A stretch of 64,000 nt of DNA, from the NCBI RefSeq assembly GCF_013167455.1, contig NZ_CP038328.1; one strand, written 5' to 3'. The notes below the pieces were generated by a model. The model had not been told where the DNA came from. It saw nothing but the letters and a program-made list of their open reading frames with translations, and did no database searches. This stretch comes from Escherichia coli O157:H7. Its GTDB lineage: Bacteria; Pseudomonadota; Gammaproteobacteria; Enterobacterales; Enterobacteriaceae. Numbering within the stretch: position 1 is the first letter of the stretch; every line of letters starts with the position of its first letter. The position numbers and the translations under genes are program-made. Of this stretch, positions 2,859 through 64,000 are shown piece by piece.

Positions 2859-3105
2859 ATATACAATAATTATTTGCACTGCCCCGCCAGCTGTAATAGC
2901 GGGGCTTCGTTTTTCAGGGGTAACAAACCCCGATACTTCTTCTATTTGCCAGCAACAATGCCTCTCTTCTGTAGCGTTCTTCGGATCTACATCATCCTGA
3001 AGTAGCGCGATATACTCACTGACTATCTGAATCAGAATATAAAAAGCAATGTTTTTAACCTATAAAAATGGCGCTGTATTTGCGCCATTTTTATCATTCA
3101 ATGCA

Positions 3106-4827: not shown

Positions 4828-5780
4828 AGGCGTTTACCTATGAACGAGTGAACCCCCCCGCCGAGGCGGCACTTAGCGCTCAGCGCGTACCCGGCGCAAA
4901 ATTTATCGCGGGCGGGACCAATCTGCTGGACCTGATGAAGCTGGAAATTGAAACGCCCACCCACCTTATCGATGTGAACGGGCTCGGGCTCGATAAGATC
5001 GAAGTGACCGACGCGGGTGGGCTGCGCATCGGCGCACTGGTACGGAACACCGACCTGGTGGCTCACGAGCGCGTGCGTCGTGATTACGCGGTACTCTCCC
5101 GCGCCCTGCTCGCTGGCGCGTCTGGTCAGTTACGCAATCAGGCAACCACAGCAGGTAATCTGCTCCAGCGCACGCGCTGCCCCTATTTTTACGACACCAA
5201 TCAGCCCTGCAATAAGCGCCTGCCCGGGAGCGGCTGCGCGGCGCTTGAAGGCTTTAGCCGTCAGCACGCGGTGGTAGGCGTAAGCGAAGCCTGCATTGCC
5301 ACCCATCCGAGCGATATGGCGGTCGCAATGCGGTTGCTGGATGCGGTGGTGGAAACCATCACGCCGGAGGGAAAGACTCGCAGTATCACACTGGCTGATT
5401 TTTATCACCCACCGGGGAAAACGCCGCACATTGAAACCGCCCTGCTTCCCGGTGAGCTTATCGTTGCGGTGACGTTACCTCCGCCGCTCGGCGGAAAACA
5501 TATCTACCGTAAGGTGCGCGATCGCGCCTCCTACACCTTTGCCCTGGTATCGGTCGCGGCGATTATTCAGCCTGACGGCAGCGGGCGCGTCGCGCTGGGC
5601 GGAGTAGCACATAAGCCCTGGCGCATTGAGGCTGCGGATGCTCAGCTATCCCAGGGGGCGCAGGCCGTATATGACGCGCTGTTCGCCAGCGCCCATCCCA
5701 CCGCTGAAAACACCTTTAAACTCCTGTTGGCGAAGCGAACGCTTGCCTCCGTACTGGCTGAAGCGAGGGCACAAGCATGA
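4824..5780 (+). CDS. paoB: Aldehyde oxidoreductase FAD-binding subunit PaoB
   Basis: Overlapping start/stop with paoA and paoC; 318 aa CO-dehydrogenase flavoprotein-like; operon context. Confidence 0.8.
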
Positions 5781-20119: not shown

Positions 20120-20669
20120 AGCGTCACCTCCCCGGCAGGCAGCCGTGCAGAAAGGGAGAGTACATAATCTCGGACTAGCAAACGGCGCGCGGAACGCTCA
20201 TCGCAGGAGACAGTGCGAAGCATACAGATGCGGGGGTGAGTGTCAGCACGGCGGATTGCGGCAAACACAAAGACATATTGCGGGTGTGACGGGGTGAGGA
20301 TTGTAGCCATGATGGCAGCCTCCAATAAGTAGCGGTTATTGCTACCACCGGAAACGCCAATTTCACTGGTGGCAGCCCGAACGGGGTTGGCGTAACCGGC
20401 CTTATTGGAAACCGGCCAGCCCGAAGGCTGCCCCGCCCGGACTACCATTATCTCGATAGAACCATGGTGTAAGCATAAACACCACAGCCCTGAAAATGGT
20501 TGTGCCTGAGCTACGACGTAAAAAAAGACGCAAGGGGCGTCAATTGTCGCCAATAAGTTATACGGAACGCCAATTCCGGCTGCCGATTTTGCGACAGCGG
20601 AAAAACTATACCTGGAAATGACGACAGTAAGCAAGCCAGAATAAAGGTATTTAATGTATGCAGGTATCA

Positions 20670-59968: not shown

Positions 59969-60906
59969 CCCCTGAATCCTGCCGGGATCTGGCTGTAGTC
60001 CACGTTGTCGTAACTGGCTTTGAAGTACGGGTCCTCGCGTTTTTCGGTGTACGTGCTGACGGACGGCGATAAGCGCAGGGAAAGCTCATCCCATTTTTCC
60101 CGCAGCTTCGACGGGCTGAGCACGTTACGGCACCAGAACGGATCGCGACTGACGCGGCTGTACATCTCGCAGATTTGTTTATGAGTACGACCATCCTGCA
60201 CACACATCAGGCGAATTTCGTTTGCCCAGGCTGTCCAGTTCGGTTCTTTGGGACGAACCACCTCGCCGTCACATTCGGCGGCATGCTCGTACAGGGCGAT
60301 GATTTTTTTCCAGAGCCACTGTGCACAGGTCAAATCATCCTGCGTCCCCCACTGGCGCTTTTTAGGGCTGAATACAACCGCATCAGGATGGCGAGTTAAA
60401 AAATCCTGTTCATCCGTCTGCGTGTCCGGTTGCGAAGCGTCCGGACGAGAAGGTTTTTTATCTGACGGATCATGTTTTGATTTTACTGACGGATCCCCGC
60501 CAGATTCTGACGGGTGAAAACCCGCTTTTTTGCCAGATTTCGACGCATCAAATTTTGACGGGTCAGATTTTGATGCGTCAGATTTTGACGGGTCAGAATC
60601 TGACAGTTGAGAAAATGCCGCTGCCTGAAGCTTCGCAACGTTAAGCTGATAAACATTCGACGCATTGCGGTTACCCTGGCGACGCGCCTTACGCGTTAAC
60701 CAGCCTTCTGCTTCCAGCCGTGCGATAGCCGTTCTGACGGTGCTCATCCCCGCGCCAATCTGGCGGGCAATGGTTTCAATTGATGGCCAGCACACACCTT
60801 CGTCATTACTGAAATCAGCCAGGCGGGCCATAATTGCCACGCTGGATAACTTCATGCCTGACGCAGCGCAACCATCCCATACATAGCCGGTTAATTTAGT
60901 GCTCAT
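59965..60906 (-). CDS. Replication initiation protein (lambda O-like, iterons embedded)
   Basis: N-terminal winged-helix region, internal repetitive SKSD/ASKS linker encoded by DNA iterons, C-terminal domain. Confidence 0.6.
   Translation of the reverse strand: MSTKLTGYVWDGCAASGMKLSSVAIMARLADFSNDEGVCWPSIETIARQIGAGMSTVRTAIARLEAEGWLTRKARRQGNRNASNVYQLNVAKLQAAAFSQLSDSDPSKSDASKSDPSKFDASKSGKKAGFHPSESGGDPSVKSKHDPSDKKPSRPDASQPDTQTDEQDFLTRHPDAVVFSPKKRQWGTQDDLTCAQWLWKKIIALYEHAAECDGEVVRPKEPNWTAWANEIRLMCVQDGRTHKQICEMYSRVSRDPFWCRNVLSPSKLREKWDELSLRLSPSVSTYTEKREDPYFKASYDNVDYSQIPAGFRG
60450..60610 (+). repeat. Iteron array (putative phage replication origin) inside the replication gene
   Basis: About eight tandem copies of TGACGG(A/G)TCA-like units (e.g. 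GATTTTGACGGGTCAGATTTTGATGCGTCAGATTTTGACGGGTCAGAATCTGACAG). Confidence 0.55.
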
Positions 60907-60915
60907 GACCGACCT

Positions 60916-61254
60916 CTATTTCCCTGAATTTACGACGAAACTGTTCGAGCGGGCTGAAGCACTCATGCTCATAGCCTTCGCGGAGGTAGATAACCCGTTG
61001 TGTTTCCGGTTCCCAACGAATGACTCTGACGGGCACTCCGTAGTGATCTTTGAACCAGCGGTTAACTTGTCGCAAAGGACTGTCTCCTTTTGCCTGTTGA
61101 AATCACCCACAGCCCACTCTGCAAAGCTGTGGGTTACAATTTCCCTGTCACCTGGTACATTCACTGCATAGCAATACTCCACCTTCGCTTTTCCACCCGG
61201 TACAGGAAGTGCAATCAGTTGCGAGCGACGGTAGTGTGTTGTTAAACTGTTCAT
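60916..61254 (-). CDS. Hypothetical phage early protein
   Basis: 112-aa ORF between cII-position gene and replication gene; no motif. Confidence 0.3.
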
Positions 61255-61802
61255 GCGTTAGTTTCTCCACAGTCACGACACGCCACGGCGCCCGGAGCTG
61301 CACACTCGCGGGCGTCATTACTTTCTGAAATGCAAAAAATTTTGTAGACCAGTGCTGCATGCTCCTGCAGCTTCGAAATTGAGAGGTACAGCTCGTCGTT
61401 AATTGCTGTCTTCTCATGCGGTTCCACTACACCGTCTTCAATTGCTGAACGAATCTGTTTTGAATAACTGCCGATCTGTTCAATGACCTCCAGCAGGCGT
61501 TGGTTGATATCGGCGTTGTCCACATCCTCGACATCAGGAAGAGACACAAAGACGCCATTTGCAGACTGCGCCACAGCGTCAGCAATGAAGTGAGTTCCAC
61601 CAGCACGTTGCAAAATCATTGCCCATCCCAGCGGGAAAATCTGATCGCCATCGGCACGAAGGCGGTTAAATAATGCGTTCTCTGTTACATCCAGCCAGTC
61701 AGCAGCTTCAGCGTACCCCCCCGGCAACGCTGCGATAGTTTTTCTGACAGCTTTCACGTACCACTCAGGCTGTTTTTCTACTTTCCAGTGATGCTTACCC
61801 AC
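61251..61802 (-). CDS. Phage early regulatory protein (cII-position; YdaT/CII-like?)
   Basis: 183 aa directly downstream of cro-like gene with start/stop overlap. Confidence 0.35.
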
Positions 61803-62055
61803 GGTTCACCTCCTGTTCCTGTGGTTTAAACCCATTCTGGTTTTGGCTAGATTGAAAACGTGCCGGATAAAGAATCTGCATTTCGCTGACTTCACCCTTA
61901 AAAAAATTGGCTAAACGTTCTGCAAGCTCGATAGATGGAATCTGCTCCAGCCTCTCAATACGACTCAACGTCGCTGGATTGACTTGAACACCCGCAGCAA
62001 CATGCTGCAAAGTGAAACCATGCGCCTTACGCACATTTCGTAATGGTGATTGCAT
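61795..62055 (-). CDS. cro: Cro-like HTH regulator
   Basis: HTH (HGFTLQHVAAGVQVNPATLSRIERLEQIPSIELAERLANFF); divergent from cI across an operator-rich spacer. Confidence 0.6.
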   Translation of the reverse strand: MQSPLRNVRKAHGFTLQHVAAGVQVNPATLSRIERLEQIPSIELAERLANFFKGEVSEMQILYPARFQSSQNQNGFKPQEQEVNRG

Positions 62056-62152
62056 ACGCCCTCCAAATATTGCGCGTTATGCATGTTATTTCACGCAATT
62101 ATTTTGCGCAAGTTGATTTGCTTATCACGCAATAAAGAAATGTAATAAACGC
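62056..62152 (+). promoter_or_regulatory. cI/cro divergent promoter-operator region (OR-like)
   Basis: Repeated CACGCAA / TTGCGCA half-sites including palindrome TTGCGCAA and two TCACGCAAT copies. Confidence 0.5.
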
Positions 62153-62845
62153 ATGAACATAGGAAACCGAGTCAGACAACTTCGCCAAGCGAAGAACATG
62201 AAAATCGCCGATCTCGCTGAAGCGATAGGAGTAGATGCGGCGAACATCTCGCGCTTAGAAACGGGTAAGCAAAAACAATTTACCGAACAAACACTGAGTA
62301 ATATTGCCAAGAGCTTAGGTGTTGATATTGCTGATCTCTTTACCTCTGCCCACAAAAGTAATACTGTATATAAAAACAGTAATAATGAGGATGTTGCGCA
62401 GGTGAAGGATGTGTTCCGTATTGAAATGCTGGATATCAGTGCCAGTGCGGGAAATGGCCTTATCCAGGGCGGTGATGTCATTGATGTGATTCATGCCATC
62501 GAATACAGAACTGATAATGCTGTATCAATGTTCGGCGGACGACCAGCCAATCACATCAAAGTTATCAACGTTCGTGGGGACAGTATGTGTCCAACCATTG
62601 AGCCAGGAGATCTCATCTTCGTTGATGTCAGCATCAATCAGTTTGATGGTGATGGTATATATGTCTTTGGTTTTGATGACAAAATATACGTTAAAAGACT
62701 TCAAATGATTCCTGACAAACTGCTGGTGATTTCTGATAACCAGATTTACCGTGAATGGGGAATTACTAGCGAAAACGAACACCGATTCATGGTCTTTGGA
62801 AAGGTCTTAATCAGTCAGTCGCAAACCCTTAAGAGACATAATTAA
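62153..62845 (+). CDS. cI: CI-like prophage repressor (HTH + S24 LexA-like peptidase domain)
   Basis: N-terminal HTH (VRQLRQAKNMKIADLAEAIGVDAANISRLETGKQ); C-terminal S24 motifs (VRGDSMCPTIEPGDLIFVD … VKRL). Confidence 0.85.
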   Translation: MNIGNRVRQLRQAKNMKIADLAEAIGVDAANISRLETGKQKQFTEQTLSNIAKSLGVDIADLFTSAHKSNTVYKNSNNEDVAQVKDVFRIEMLDISASAGNGLIQGGDVIDVIHAIEYRTDNAVSMFGGRPANHIKVINVRGDSMCPTIEPGDLIFVDVSINQFDGDGIYVFGFDDKIYVKRLQMIPDKLLVISDNQIYREWGITSENEHRFMVFGKVLISQSQTLKRHN

Positions 62846-62863
62846 CCTCAATATCCCATCCAT

Positions 62864-62887
62864 CGGCCACCGAAAGGTGGCTTTTTA
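62864..62887 (+). terminator. Rho-independent terminator after cI
   Basis: GGCCACCGAAAGGTGGC followed by TTTTT. Confidence 0.6.
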
Positions 62888-62899
62888 TTACCTATAAAT

Positions 62900-62936
62900 T
62901 TGCATATCTCGCAAATACCACTTGCATATCTCGCAA
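62900..62936 (+). promoter_or_regulatory. Two direct repeats of TTGCATATCTCGCAA (candidate OL operators / PL promoter)
   Basis: Identical 15-mers at 62900-62914 and 62922-62936; second gives TTGCAT -35 with 17-nt spacer to TATCTT. Confidence 0.4.
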
Positions 62937-63122
62937 TTTAATTTTATCTTTTATTCCAGACCAACTACAGGATTACAACAAAATCTGGTTGCAACACGGT
63001 GCATGTGTCGTAAGCAGTCAGTAAATGTCAAAAACGAACAGGCAGGACGCCCACGAAGTAGCCGCCTGGGGCATATGAAGTCCAGGATGATTCGTTGAGT
63101 CATGTTGTGCCACTAGGCACTC

Positions 63123-63419
63123 ATGTTAAAGCAGGTGTATGAAATGAAAGTCCAGATTTTAAACAATAACTGTGAAGTCGTTTGGTCATACGACATAGCC
63201 GCCCCTGTAGATCAGAGCGGCGATAGCTGGACCAATGGGAAACATCAGATTATGGCTGGAGTTGTGTTCTCTTTACGCCGTGCTTTAGAACAGGCTGAAG
63301 TCTTTCCATCAGACCCTGAATGGAAATGGCCTTTTTCTATTTGTCCAAATTCGGAGAGTACATTTCAGAAAATTGGTCAGAAAGTCGCACTCGAAGAGCA
63401 TCAGCCAACTGTTTCCTGA
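63123..63419 (+). CDS. Hypothetical phage early-left protein
   Basis: 98-aa ORF downstream of the PL-like promoter. Confidence 0.3.
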   Translation: MLKQVYEMKVQILNNNCEVVWSYDIAAPVDQSGDSWTNGKHQIMAGVVFSLRRALEQAEVFPSDPEWKWPFSICPNSESTFQKIGQKVALEEHQPTVS

Positions 63420-63582
63420 TTTTTTCAGGTAACTCGTCGGCATCGCAGAAACAACAACGCTCGATCATGTTGAAAGCCGATTCGTAGAACTGTTTTTGCT
63501 GAGTGTCGCTGAGACAGGAAAAGAGCGACGTTACGATGATTTTATTAATTGCATTATCAAGTTCTTTTTCATCAAAAGTCAT
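63337..63582 (-). CDS. Hypothetical small acidic phage protein
   Basis: 81-aa ORF; partly overlaps the opposite-strand ORF, so at most one may be real over the overlap. Confidence 0.3.
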   Translation of the reverse strand: MTFDEKELDNAINKIIVTSLFSCLSDTQQKQFYESAFNMIERCCFCDADELPEKIRKQLADALRVRLSDQFSEMYSPNLDK

Positions 63583-63837
63583 TTGATTTTCCTTTTATGT
63601 ATACGGGCTTAAAAGGATACCACCGAGCCTGAAGTGGTGAAAAGACAGGCACATAACAGCTAAGTATTTTCAACCAGAGAGAATCCTTAGCGTTGTGGTG
63701 AATGCGGCTCAGCGCACGCGGGTTAAGGTTGAGGCTGACAGTCGACCTTCTGTGGATACCCACCCGCCTGGTGTGCAACCTTCGCCAGGCACCGGGAGGC
63801 ACCCGGCACCACAACTTTATGCTGTGTGTAGTCTTAG

Positions 63838-63885
63838 CGGTACCAGCTTGTACCCTTGCTTCCGGCTGGTACCGTCCTTTTTACA
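63838..63885 (+). terminator. Putative rho-independent terminator / structured RNA element
   Basis: CGGTACCAGC … GCTGGTACCG arms followed by TCCTTTTT. Confidence 0.35.
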
Positions 63886-64000
63886 AAACAGAGAAGAGCA
63901 TCACCGGACGACGGGCTCATAACCCAATCCATCCGGGCGGCTGCCACCGCAGGTGTTCTTCTCTGTTTTGTGGAGAAACTAACCGCCCCTACGGGGGCAT

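Follow-up and report, generated by a model that had tools for sequence, protein, structure and literature searches.

The right-hand end of a 64,000-nucleotide stretch of the Escherichia coli O157:H7 chromosome (NCBI RefSeq assembly GCF_013167455.1, contig NZ_CP038328.1; hereafter, the window) lies inside a lambdoid prophage integrated beside tRNA-Thr and proA. Since a cI-like repressor gene, its terminator and the OL/PL region follow one another in this order (Table 1), all that lies to the right of OL/PL belongs to the early-left operon and is read on the + strand; the distal genes of this operon, seen in the full O157 record, are yfdR, yfdS, yfdT, xis and int. We examined positions 63600-64000, which a first-pass annotation made from the letters alone had singled out as a structured, non-coding stretch of an early-left operon, with a terminator-like hairpin and a long inverted repeat. 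That description is borne out: the stretch belongs to the untranslated leader of the PL operon in an SfV/ST64B/e14-like prophage, of which it forms the distal portion. We regard the locus as a new version of the leader type known from dicBF. It carries, from 5' to 3', an STnc100-like domain (domain B), a divergent module of the DicF family ending in a predicted Rho-independent terminator, and a structured RNA, here called element E, which is undescribed and very widespread. Three of these points go beyond the first-pass annotation, namely the STnc100-like domain upstream, the homology to dicF, and the nature of the inverted repeat, which is a conserved three-way junction and not a simple hairpin.

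The arms of the inverted repeat had been placed at about 63890 and 63950, with some 45 nucleotides (nt) enclosed. These coordinates are correct, and the arms are longer than described: they extend over 25 nt (63883-63907 and 63947-63971), are 84% complementary and stand 39 nt apart. When folded, the region forms the 23-base pair (bp) stem of element E, which has four G·U pairs and zero mismatches in the window and closes a junction with two inner hairpins. The + strand folds at -61.1 kcal/mol, against -33.2 +/- 3.6 kcal/mol for shuffled sequences (z -7.8, none of 200 shuffles being as good), and the - strand folds less well (-56.4 kcal/mol). Relatives were collected with a pattern for the inner hairpin, which retrieved more than 120 viral contigs and 90 distinct variants of terminator plus element E; element E itself occurs in 69 variants, reduced to 26 representatives at 95% identity. 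Among 24 diverse sequences, 95% of alignment cells fall in standard pairs, and nine pairs show compensatory changes, such as A-U to G-C in 11 sequences and G-C to C-G in 7. None of 500 shuffles reached the observed values, and 38-49% of cells were paired when the 3' partner was slid along the alignment. The structure is thus kept among homologues, as the first-pass annotation had proposed to verify by folding and covariation. Given this conservation and covariation in relatives, neither the terminator hairpin nor the inverted repeat is a chance palindrome. The folded strand is the + strand, that is, the sense strand of the operon, because G·U cells outnumber A·C cells 37 to 7; the covariance model of element E gives 122.5 bits on this strand of the window and 48.8 bits on the other.

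The inner hairpins of element E behave differently from each other. Hairpin 1 has an invariant core, to which we return below, whereas hairpin 2 is variable in both sequence and length; three of its four pairs show compensatory changes, and its indels, of 1-26 nt, are not multiples of three, which argues against coding. The 3' tail has no start codon at Shine-Dalgarno distance. This tail, GGAGAAAC, and the GC hairpin behind it are constant features across relatives, the hairpin being present in every one of them with a different sequence each time (CCGCCCCUACGGGGGC, CGACCUUGCAGGGUCG, GGCGGUGGCAGCCGCC and others); the start of yfdP in SfV-type phages is some 30 nt beyond it.

By BLAST, element E is found in 2775 of the 5426 complete E. 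coli genomes, with up to five copies per genome, and its covariance model scores 100-141 bits in 23 species genomes, the genera among species representatives being Citrobacter, Enterobacter, Klebsiella, Kosakonia, Mixta, Mangrovibacter, Phytobacter, Atlantibacter, Pseudescherichia and Pseudocitrobacter. Across 186 distinct loci it lies almost always directly 3' of the terminator and 5' of the first downstream open reading frame (ORF). The covariance model detects no second copy in the 64-kb window, and none in HK022 or Qin. The whole arrangement of domain B, terminator and element E (88.7 bits) is present in the e14 prophage of K-12, under the coding sequence (CDS) ymfH. In e14, a defective prophage, the loop of element E is mutated (GGGUUAAUAACCC). 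Both ymfH (b1142; record L229, 5070-5381) and a 'frameshifted hypothetical protein' called by PGAP in the window (63695-64014) overlie domain B, the terminator and element E, and both calls are probably annotation artefacts over structured RNA; nothing relevant was found in the literature on ymfH and yfdP. The CPS-53 prophage of K-12 (yfdP locus) was set aside as a comparison, element E being deleted there and the locus uninformative.

The hairpin that had been noted with its T-run at about 63838-63885 has perfect 10-nt arms, forming about 12 bp in the fold, and is followed by UCC and by TTTTT at 63878-63882. A simple terminator scan with a loop limit of 8 nt missed it because its loop measures 17 nt. 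Among the 186 related distinct loci, the T-run is present in 184 and the hairpin directly before it in 171, with varying stem sequences, and its reading as an intrinsic transcription terminator is upheld. We built a terminator-family profile from 113 distinct linker-plus-terminator sequences, which matches dicF of the K-12 prophage Qin (record L225, 2894-2941, within the annotated dicF at 2883-2935; E 3.1e-5). Linker plus terminator of one related locus, L112, score 29.6 bits on the DicF model (RF00039; E 2.4e-4), the best value among relatives. On the strength of these two matches, the hairpin at 63838-63882 is, to judge from its sequence, the Rho-independent terminator of a divergent DicF-family module. 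The part shared by the DicF family and the relatives of the window reads UUUGGCGGUAyCAGUUU...CCGCCCUUUUU; the window copy is more diverged (AGCGGUACCAGC, with the 17-nt loop) and is tied to the family via near-identical relatives such as mEp460 and e14. The consensus of the linker is kept across most relatives and aligns, in L112, to the 5' part of the DicF model, and the linker or putative seed of the window differs in sequence from the DicF seed of K-12. A small RNA, which the first-pass annotation had listed among the options, is the best reading of the hairpin, since the latter appears to be the 3' module of a DicF-family RNA. EcOnc22-24, from the Hfq-CRAC table of O157 Sakai, were rejected as a match, EcOnc22 sitting among tail genes.

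Upstream of this module, domain B aligns to all 206 positions (1-206) of the Rfam STnc100 model (RF02076) at 63662-63884, with a score of 43.0 bits against a gathering threshold of 47 (E 2.2e-7). None of 14 related loci passes this threshold either and, at gathering thresholds, Rfam gives zero leader matches in the 14 relatives or in the whole window. The Rfam scan proposed earlier points to STnc100 below the threshold for domain B, and element E has no match in Rfam 15. Domain B folds with a z of -4.2; its closing helix (GUUGUGG/CCACAAC) and its 3'-proximal hairpin are kept in 107 of 127 related loci, and the interiors are highly variable. In the L112 variant (4897-5021), the interior has D and T arms of canonical tRNA type, together with an insert of 57 nt and an AUCAUAA loop. 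Its score on the Rfam tRNA model is 28.5 bits against a gathering threshold of 29, with no call by ARAGORN. From these arms and this score, domain B is tRNA-like in design. ARAGORN finds no tRNA in 60000-64000 and Rfam no tRNA match in the window, and tRNA gene callers applied to 44 related loci returned nothing except unrelated tRNA-Ser genes.

The leader of Qin provides the closest parallel to this order of elements. It is made up of a long hairpin, a domain B, dicF with its terminator and a 24-bp stem; this stem reaches from the dicF U-tract (L225, 2939-2961) to the dicB Shine-Dalgarno sequence, its right arm being 3075-3098, and holds a second STnc100-like domain between its arms. The reported 3' end of the 72-nt DicF (PMC5069750) falls inside its left arm, and an RNase III-dependent site, 'dicF-dicB intergenic', was mapped at 1649470 (PMC5371410 supplement); the same map lists no site in e14. 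A cut by RNase III in the hairpin further upstream makes the 5' end of a 190-nt DicF precursor, while the 5' end of mature DicF is due to RNase E (bioRxiv 10.1101/2023.04.14.536235). That hairpin (L225, 2673-2758) is longer than the hairpin of the window at the equivalent position, 63659-63691, and holds the RNase III cut; it overlaps the 5' strand of domain B, where the 190-nt precursor starts.

Because element E is the counterpart of the Qin stem by position and architecture, we propose, with our confidence evenly divided for and against, that it is an RNase III site on read-through transcripts within a dicBF-type leader. Its stem provides the roughly two turns (at least 20 bp) of nearly continuous double-stranded RNA taken as the criterion for RNase III. 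Transcription from PL would run through the STnc100-like, tRNA-like domain and then through the DicF-family module, with its linker or seed and its terminator. Terminated transcripts would give, after 5' trimming, a small trans-acting RNA with a seed other than that of DicF; if Qin is a guide, trimming would be by RNase E, plus RNase III further upstream. Read-through transcripts would form element E, whose 23-bp stem starts inside the terminator U-tract and ends just before the next ribosome-binding region. RNase III would cut this stem, leaving an alternative 3' end of the small RNA some 10-20 nt longer; the mRNA downstream (yfdP...xis-int; here yfdR...int) would gain a new 5' end from the same cut and would then start with the GC hairpin at 63985-63998 as a small protective structure.

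What the structures mean for cleavage, for the liberation of a small RNA and for the expression of the genes downstream is inferred. The RNase III role is drawn by analogy from a non-homologous stem, as the element E model finds nothing significant in Qin (9.5 bits, E 0.25, on a different hairpin), and several other results also weigh against the proposal. The terminator module of the window has no match to the Rfam DicF model even at E<=10 (61500-64000), and the DicF gathering threshold of 48 bits is reached nowhere in the whole window. A duplex between the window seed and the ftsZ leader is no better than those of shuffled sequences (z -0.4), in a test of low power where genuine DicF itself attains only z -1.3. 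Most family members have a conserved mid-stem mismatch (alignment columns 21/115), which could either direct or prevent cleavage; where the window has a G-C pair at 63893/63961, C·C stands in most relatives. Finally, RNase III, with its low sequence specificity, cannot explain the near-invariant 21-nt core or the GGAGAAAC tail; the RNase III model leaves the invariant hairpin tip unexplained, which implies an additional specific partner.

The tip of hairpin 1 consists of GGG-CUCAUAA-CCC at 63913-63925, read as GGGCUCAUAACCC, in which three consecutive G-C pairs close the CUCAUAA loop. Over 63908-63924, 16 of 17 bases are identical to the anticodon arm of the metY tRNA-fMet, these three pairs and the loop included. 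When the 13-mer made up of GGG, loop and CCC was left free in the search pattern, 186 of 218 matches had GGGCTCATAACCC, and the recurrent variants differed solely at the last two loop positions. The 21-nt core GACGGGCUCAUnnCCCAAUCC is also found outside the element E family, on helices of unrelated sequence with perfect pairing over 6-10 bp (CUCCAAUC/GAUUGGAG, CGCGAUCGC/GCGAUCGCG and GCCGCGGGC/GCCCGCGGC, for example). The contigs concerned have been assigned to Acidobacteria, Planctomycetes, Phycisphaerae, Alpha- and Deltaproteobacteria, and there are cases in Raoultella, Pantoea and Serratia as well. About two random matches to the 19-base pattern are expected in the collection, but not with such flanking helices. 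No tRNA gene was found at these distant sites, and their neighbours are phage genes: lambda-type portal, GP88, inovirus-type Rep and holin-endolysin cassettes. In L258, L252, L280, L245/L301 and L234, the core stands 20-260 nt upstream of a small ORF; behind this ORF comes a lambda-type portal in the Planctomycete contig, GP88 in the Deltaproteobacteria contig, an inovirus-type Rep G2P, or holin-endolysin cassettes in Raoultella and Pantoea. In L344, about 1 kb separates the core from a KwaB-like protein encoded downstream of it. A relationship by descent to the metY-rimP-nusA leader was considered and dismissed, the 17-nt anticodon-arm match being the only one found.

As a sequence-blind nuclease cannot explain such invariance, the recurrence of the core points to a specific partner conserved across bacteria, for which initiator-tRNA mimicry is only a lead. 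Both the features of the initiator tRNA and the cleavage of tRNA-fMet by VapC are known, and mRNA operators that mimic tRNA anticodon arms exist, such as that of thrS. It is conceivable, although rather doubtful, that element E works mainly via a tip mimicking the initiator-tRNA anticodon stem-loop, the long stem merely presenting it. In that case it might act as decoy, sensor or translational operator, with the 30S P site or IF3, MetRS, and a tRNA-fMet-cleaving toxin of the VapC/MvpT type as candidate partners. This would account for the near-complete match to metY, for the constancy of GGG, CUCAU and CCC even when left free, and for the recurrence of the core in unrelated covarying helices across phyla and in other Enterobacterales contexts near phage genes, as a copy of an invariant host molecule would itself be invariant across phyla. 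However, loop positions 37-38, fixed in real initiator tRNA, vary here (AA, UA, UC, AC, CC), only three of the five anticodon-stem pairs are kept, and nothing in the tRNA corresponds to the conserved flanks GAC and AAUCC; the likeness was spotted after the fact, binding or cleavage by a partner is hypothetical, and the e14 loop is mutated, though e14 is defective. A broader form of the idea, which we advance tentatively and would not expect to hold, is that the core, on any helix, is a hitherto unrecognised phage and mobile-element RNA motif imitating the initiator tRNA anticodon arm across phyla. Toxins that cleave tRNA-fMet could be decoyed or sensed by it, or it could offer a hold on the 30S P site, IF3 or MetRS; the lambdoid phages of enterobacteria would have built it into a processing stem beside a DicF-like small RNA.

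Other explanations do without a mimic. The first-pass annotation had listed an anti-termination site among its options; element E would, on such a reading, be a cis-acting RNA that modifies RNA polymerase or blocks Rho (put-like antitermination or anti-pausing) for the downstream operon, which we think unlikely. Element E does head a long operon, in phages without a recognisable N gene in the N position, core copies precede lysis or structural gene blocks in other phages, and RNA polymerase, being conserved across phyla, could explain the invariant core. Yet the element comes behind the one evident terminator of the leader instead of ahead of it, at some 900 nt from PL, and shares neither sequence nor architecture with HK022 putL/putR or HK639 putL, its model finding nothing in HK022. 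A better-placed candidate exists at 63040-63100, downstream of PL, and the two RNAs are independent modules, since about half of the loci with element E have no RNA of the 63040-63100 type. Of the interpretations first offered, the terminator, the small RNA and the early-left operon are retained and the anti-termination site is given up. That the inverted repeat acts as DNA, as a cruciform or single-stranded DNA hairpin for recombination, module exchange, replication priming or protein binding, appears highly unlikely. Homology between phages breaks just past the element, at about 63984-63989, where yfdP-yfdQ are missing, one distant core copy (L280) lies beside an inovirus-type Rep gene, a setting in which folded single-stranded DNA signals are common, and the GGG-7 nt-CCC arrangement resembles what we take to be a recombinase core. 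Against this, the excess of G·U over A·C wobbles, the better fold of the + strand and the strand difference in model score (122 against 49 bits) favour RNA, as do the conserved unpaired nucleotides and the three-way junction, which are typical of RNA, and the constant orientation relative to transcription, immediately after a terminator and small-RNA module. There is, last, a very slight chance that the region codes for a small protein with incidental structure: annotation pipelines do call CDSs over it (the PGAP pseudogene, ymfH in e14), and there is a 75-amino acid ORF at 63695-63922. We rejected this explanation, as the ORFs have no Pfam match above threshold and a single weak and partial PHROG match (E 9e-6, 23 residues), and substitutions are compensatory across the stem rather than synonymous; moreover, the length of hairpin 2 varies by 1-26 nt regardless of frame, and the ORF is frameshifted or absent in relatives.

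The features of the leader are collected in Table 1. As the window ends within the locus, its right flank was read from the full O157 record L001 (window position = L001 position + 56999), and the truncation was overcome with identical O157 records plus SfV, mEp460, ST64B and e14.

Table 1. Coordinates of leader features in the window
Feature	Position	Strand	Details
cI-like repressor	62153-62845	+	
Terminator of the repressor gene	62865-62882		3' of the cI-like repressor gene
OL/PL	~62890-62950		marked by two copies of TTGCATATCTCGCAA
Conserved RNA of ~65 nt	63040-63100	+	downstream of PL
Hairpin with 13-nt arms	63659-63691	+	abuts the 5' side of the STnc100-like domain; from repeat search and fold
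Domain B, STnc100-like, tRNA-like, multi-helix	63662-63815	+	closed by GUUGUGGUG (63692-63700) / CACCACAAC (63807-63815)
A/U-rich linker, putative seed of a DicF-like RNA, UUUAUGCUGUGUGUAGUCUUAG	63816-63837	+	consensus UUGCUGUGUGUAGUCUUGG
Predicted Rho-independent terminator	63838-63882	+	stem 63838-63847 / 63865-63874, U-run 63878-63882
Element E, 23-bp stem closing a three-way junction	63880-63974	+	stem 63880-63902 / 63952-63974
Inner hairpin 1 of element E	63904-63936	+	invariant core GACGGGCUCAUAACCCAAUCC (63910-63930)
Inner hairpin 2 of element E	63937-63950	+	sequence and length variable, 14 to ~40 nt in relatives
3' tail GGAGAAACUAAC	63972-63983	+	foot of the long stem; nearly invariant in alignments
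Small GC hairpin	63985-63998	+	just 5' of the ribosome-binding site of the next gene

Positions 63000-64000 are 100% identical to many O157 chromosomes. The nearest phages are SfV (98.6% over 63030-63988), SfII, mEp460 and Stx2c-converting phages, ST64B being more distant, and leader synteny is the same in SfV, mEp460, ST64B, phiNP, LLS, Eeyore and e14. In all these closest phages, the repressor and the first gene of the yfdP-yfdQ-yfdR block stand 600-1000 nt apart, and the operon strand of this interval has few annotated genes or none. In the O157 prophage, yfdP-yfdQ are deleted and yfdR starts at the window-equivalent position 64096; homology to SfV breaks at about 63984-63989, just past element E. 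Compared with SfV, mEp460 and e14-type phages, the deletion junction (from about 63984-63989 onward; L001 6985-7097) retains a three-codon remnant, ATGGAAATGTAA, and this junction is common to SfII and several viral contigs.

The conserved RNA at 63040-63100 adjoins the promoter in most relatives and lies about 95 nt from it in the window. It is found behind many operator and immunity types, also in phages of Yersinia, Pantoea, Pectobacterium, Klebsiella and Salmonella; covariation is seen in its closing helix and its second stem (6 of 15 pairs compensatory), and it has no Rfam entry. By position, it is a candidate for the antiterminator-like RNA of the operon in these phages without N. Further downstream, two convergent ORFs overlap by 83 nt, 63123-63419 (+) and 63337-63582 (-), each with a match to a PHROG family whose function is unknown (phrog_3195 and phrog_3311); transcription from PL necessarily runs antisense through the second. 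At 63615-63657 (+), the module CCACCGAGCCUGAAGUGG-UGAAAAGA-CAGGC forms a hairpin; its loop, GCCUG, is able to pair with the CAGGC that follows, so that the fold is pseudoknot-like. Further copies of this module occur in e14, Eeyore and several viral contigs, some of which have it immediately 5' of the DicF-like linker, and its hairpin was flagged on the - strand by the terminator scan. Elsewhere in the window, Rfam matches above gathering are C4 antisense RNA plus isrK (20365-20452, 20521-20598), a P1 immI-type antirepressor control region found as the same pair in ST64B and one viral contig, and IS009 (2901-3100).

DicF is among the oldest known bacterial small RNAs. The association of a dicF terminator module, an STnc100-like domain and a long stem predicted to depend on read-through appears to be a reusable leader design, fitted with different seeds and present in active temperate phages and about half of the complete E. 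coli genomes. This suggests that DicF-like regulators in enterohaemorrhagic E. coli and other strains are not limited to the four canonical copies. Annotated CDSs like ymfH of the K-12 prophage e14 probably correspond to RNA, not protein, and the tip of element E, initiator-tRNA-like and recurrent in distant phyla, points to a specific interaction so far overlooked.

Several known systems share parts of this design. STnc100/PasD RNAs also lie in prophages, on the sense strand of a long phage operon, and domain B aligns to their full-length model, including UGGUGAAU, the CACCGGGAGGCACCCGGCACCA hairpin and the terminal terminator; they normally occur in the late region, downstream of Q, stx or an esterase gene, whereas the window copy is in an early-left leader, and the terminator absorbed by the STnc100 model is, in the window, the DicF-like module. 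The put RNAs of HK022 and HK639 are likewise cis-acting structured RNAs of early leaders in lambdoid phages without N, but neither element E nor the 63040-63100 RNA has the sequence or two-stem architecture of putL/putR; the latter RNA has only CGAAC and CAGGAUGA in common with them and is not a put homologue by sequence. In relation to initiator tRNA-fMet, GGG-CUCAUAA-CCC is identical to positions 29-41 and placed at a helix tip in an mRNA leader, but the lower anticodon stem is replaced by an internal loop and positions 37-38 are free to vary; element E is not a tRNA, and ARAGORN finds none in it. RNase III sites restricted to read-through RNA are known from lambda sib/tI retroregulation, the lambda N-leader and the metY-rimP-nusA leader. 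There, as for element E, a long duplex at or just past a terminator makes only read-through RNA a substrate, at the point where a structured RNA gives way to the mRNA downstream of it; element E differs in having a sequence-invariant branch and no sequence homology to them (the metY-rimP leader was compared directly), and its cleavage is a prediction.

The likeness is closest to dicF itself. Like DicF, the module lies on the sense strand of a repressor-controlled operon of the early-left type, between small upstream ORFs and the first downstream gene, is preceded by an STnc100-like or tRNA-like domain, and has a homologous terminator hairpin and U-tract (GGCGGUAyCAG...CCGCCCUUUUU); as in Qin dicBF, a stem of about 23 bp extends from the U-tract to the ribosome-binding site of the next gene. 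The seed is not the same, so that targeting of ftsZ, xylR and pykA cannot be assumed; the structure past the terminator is a compact three-way junction, not an STnc100-like domain; and the downstream genes are yfdP/yfdR...xis-int, not dicB. A study of 2016 reported no matches to DicF or DicB in phage genome databases (PMC5069750). In contrast, the present comparison finds a DicF-like family in active phages such as SfV, ST64B, mEp460 and the Stx2c phages.

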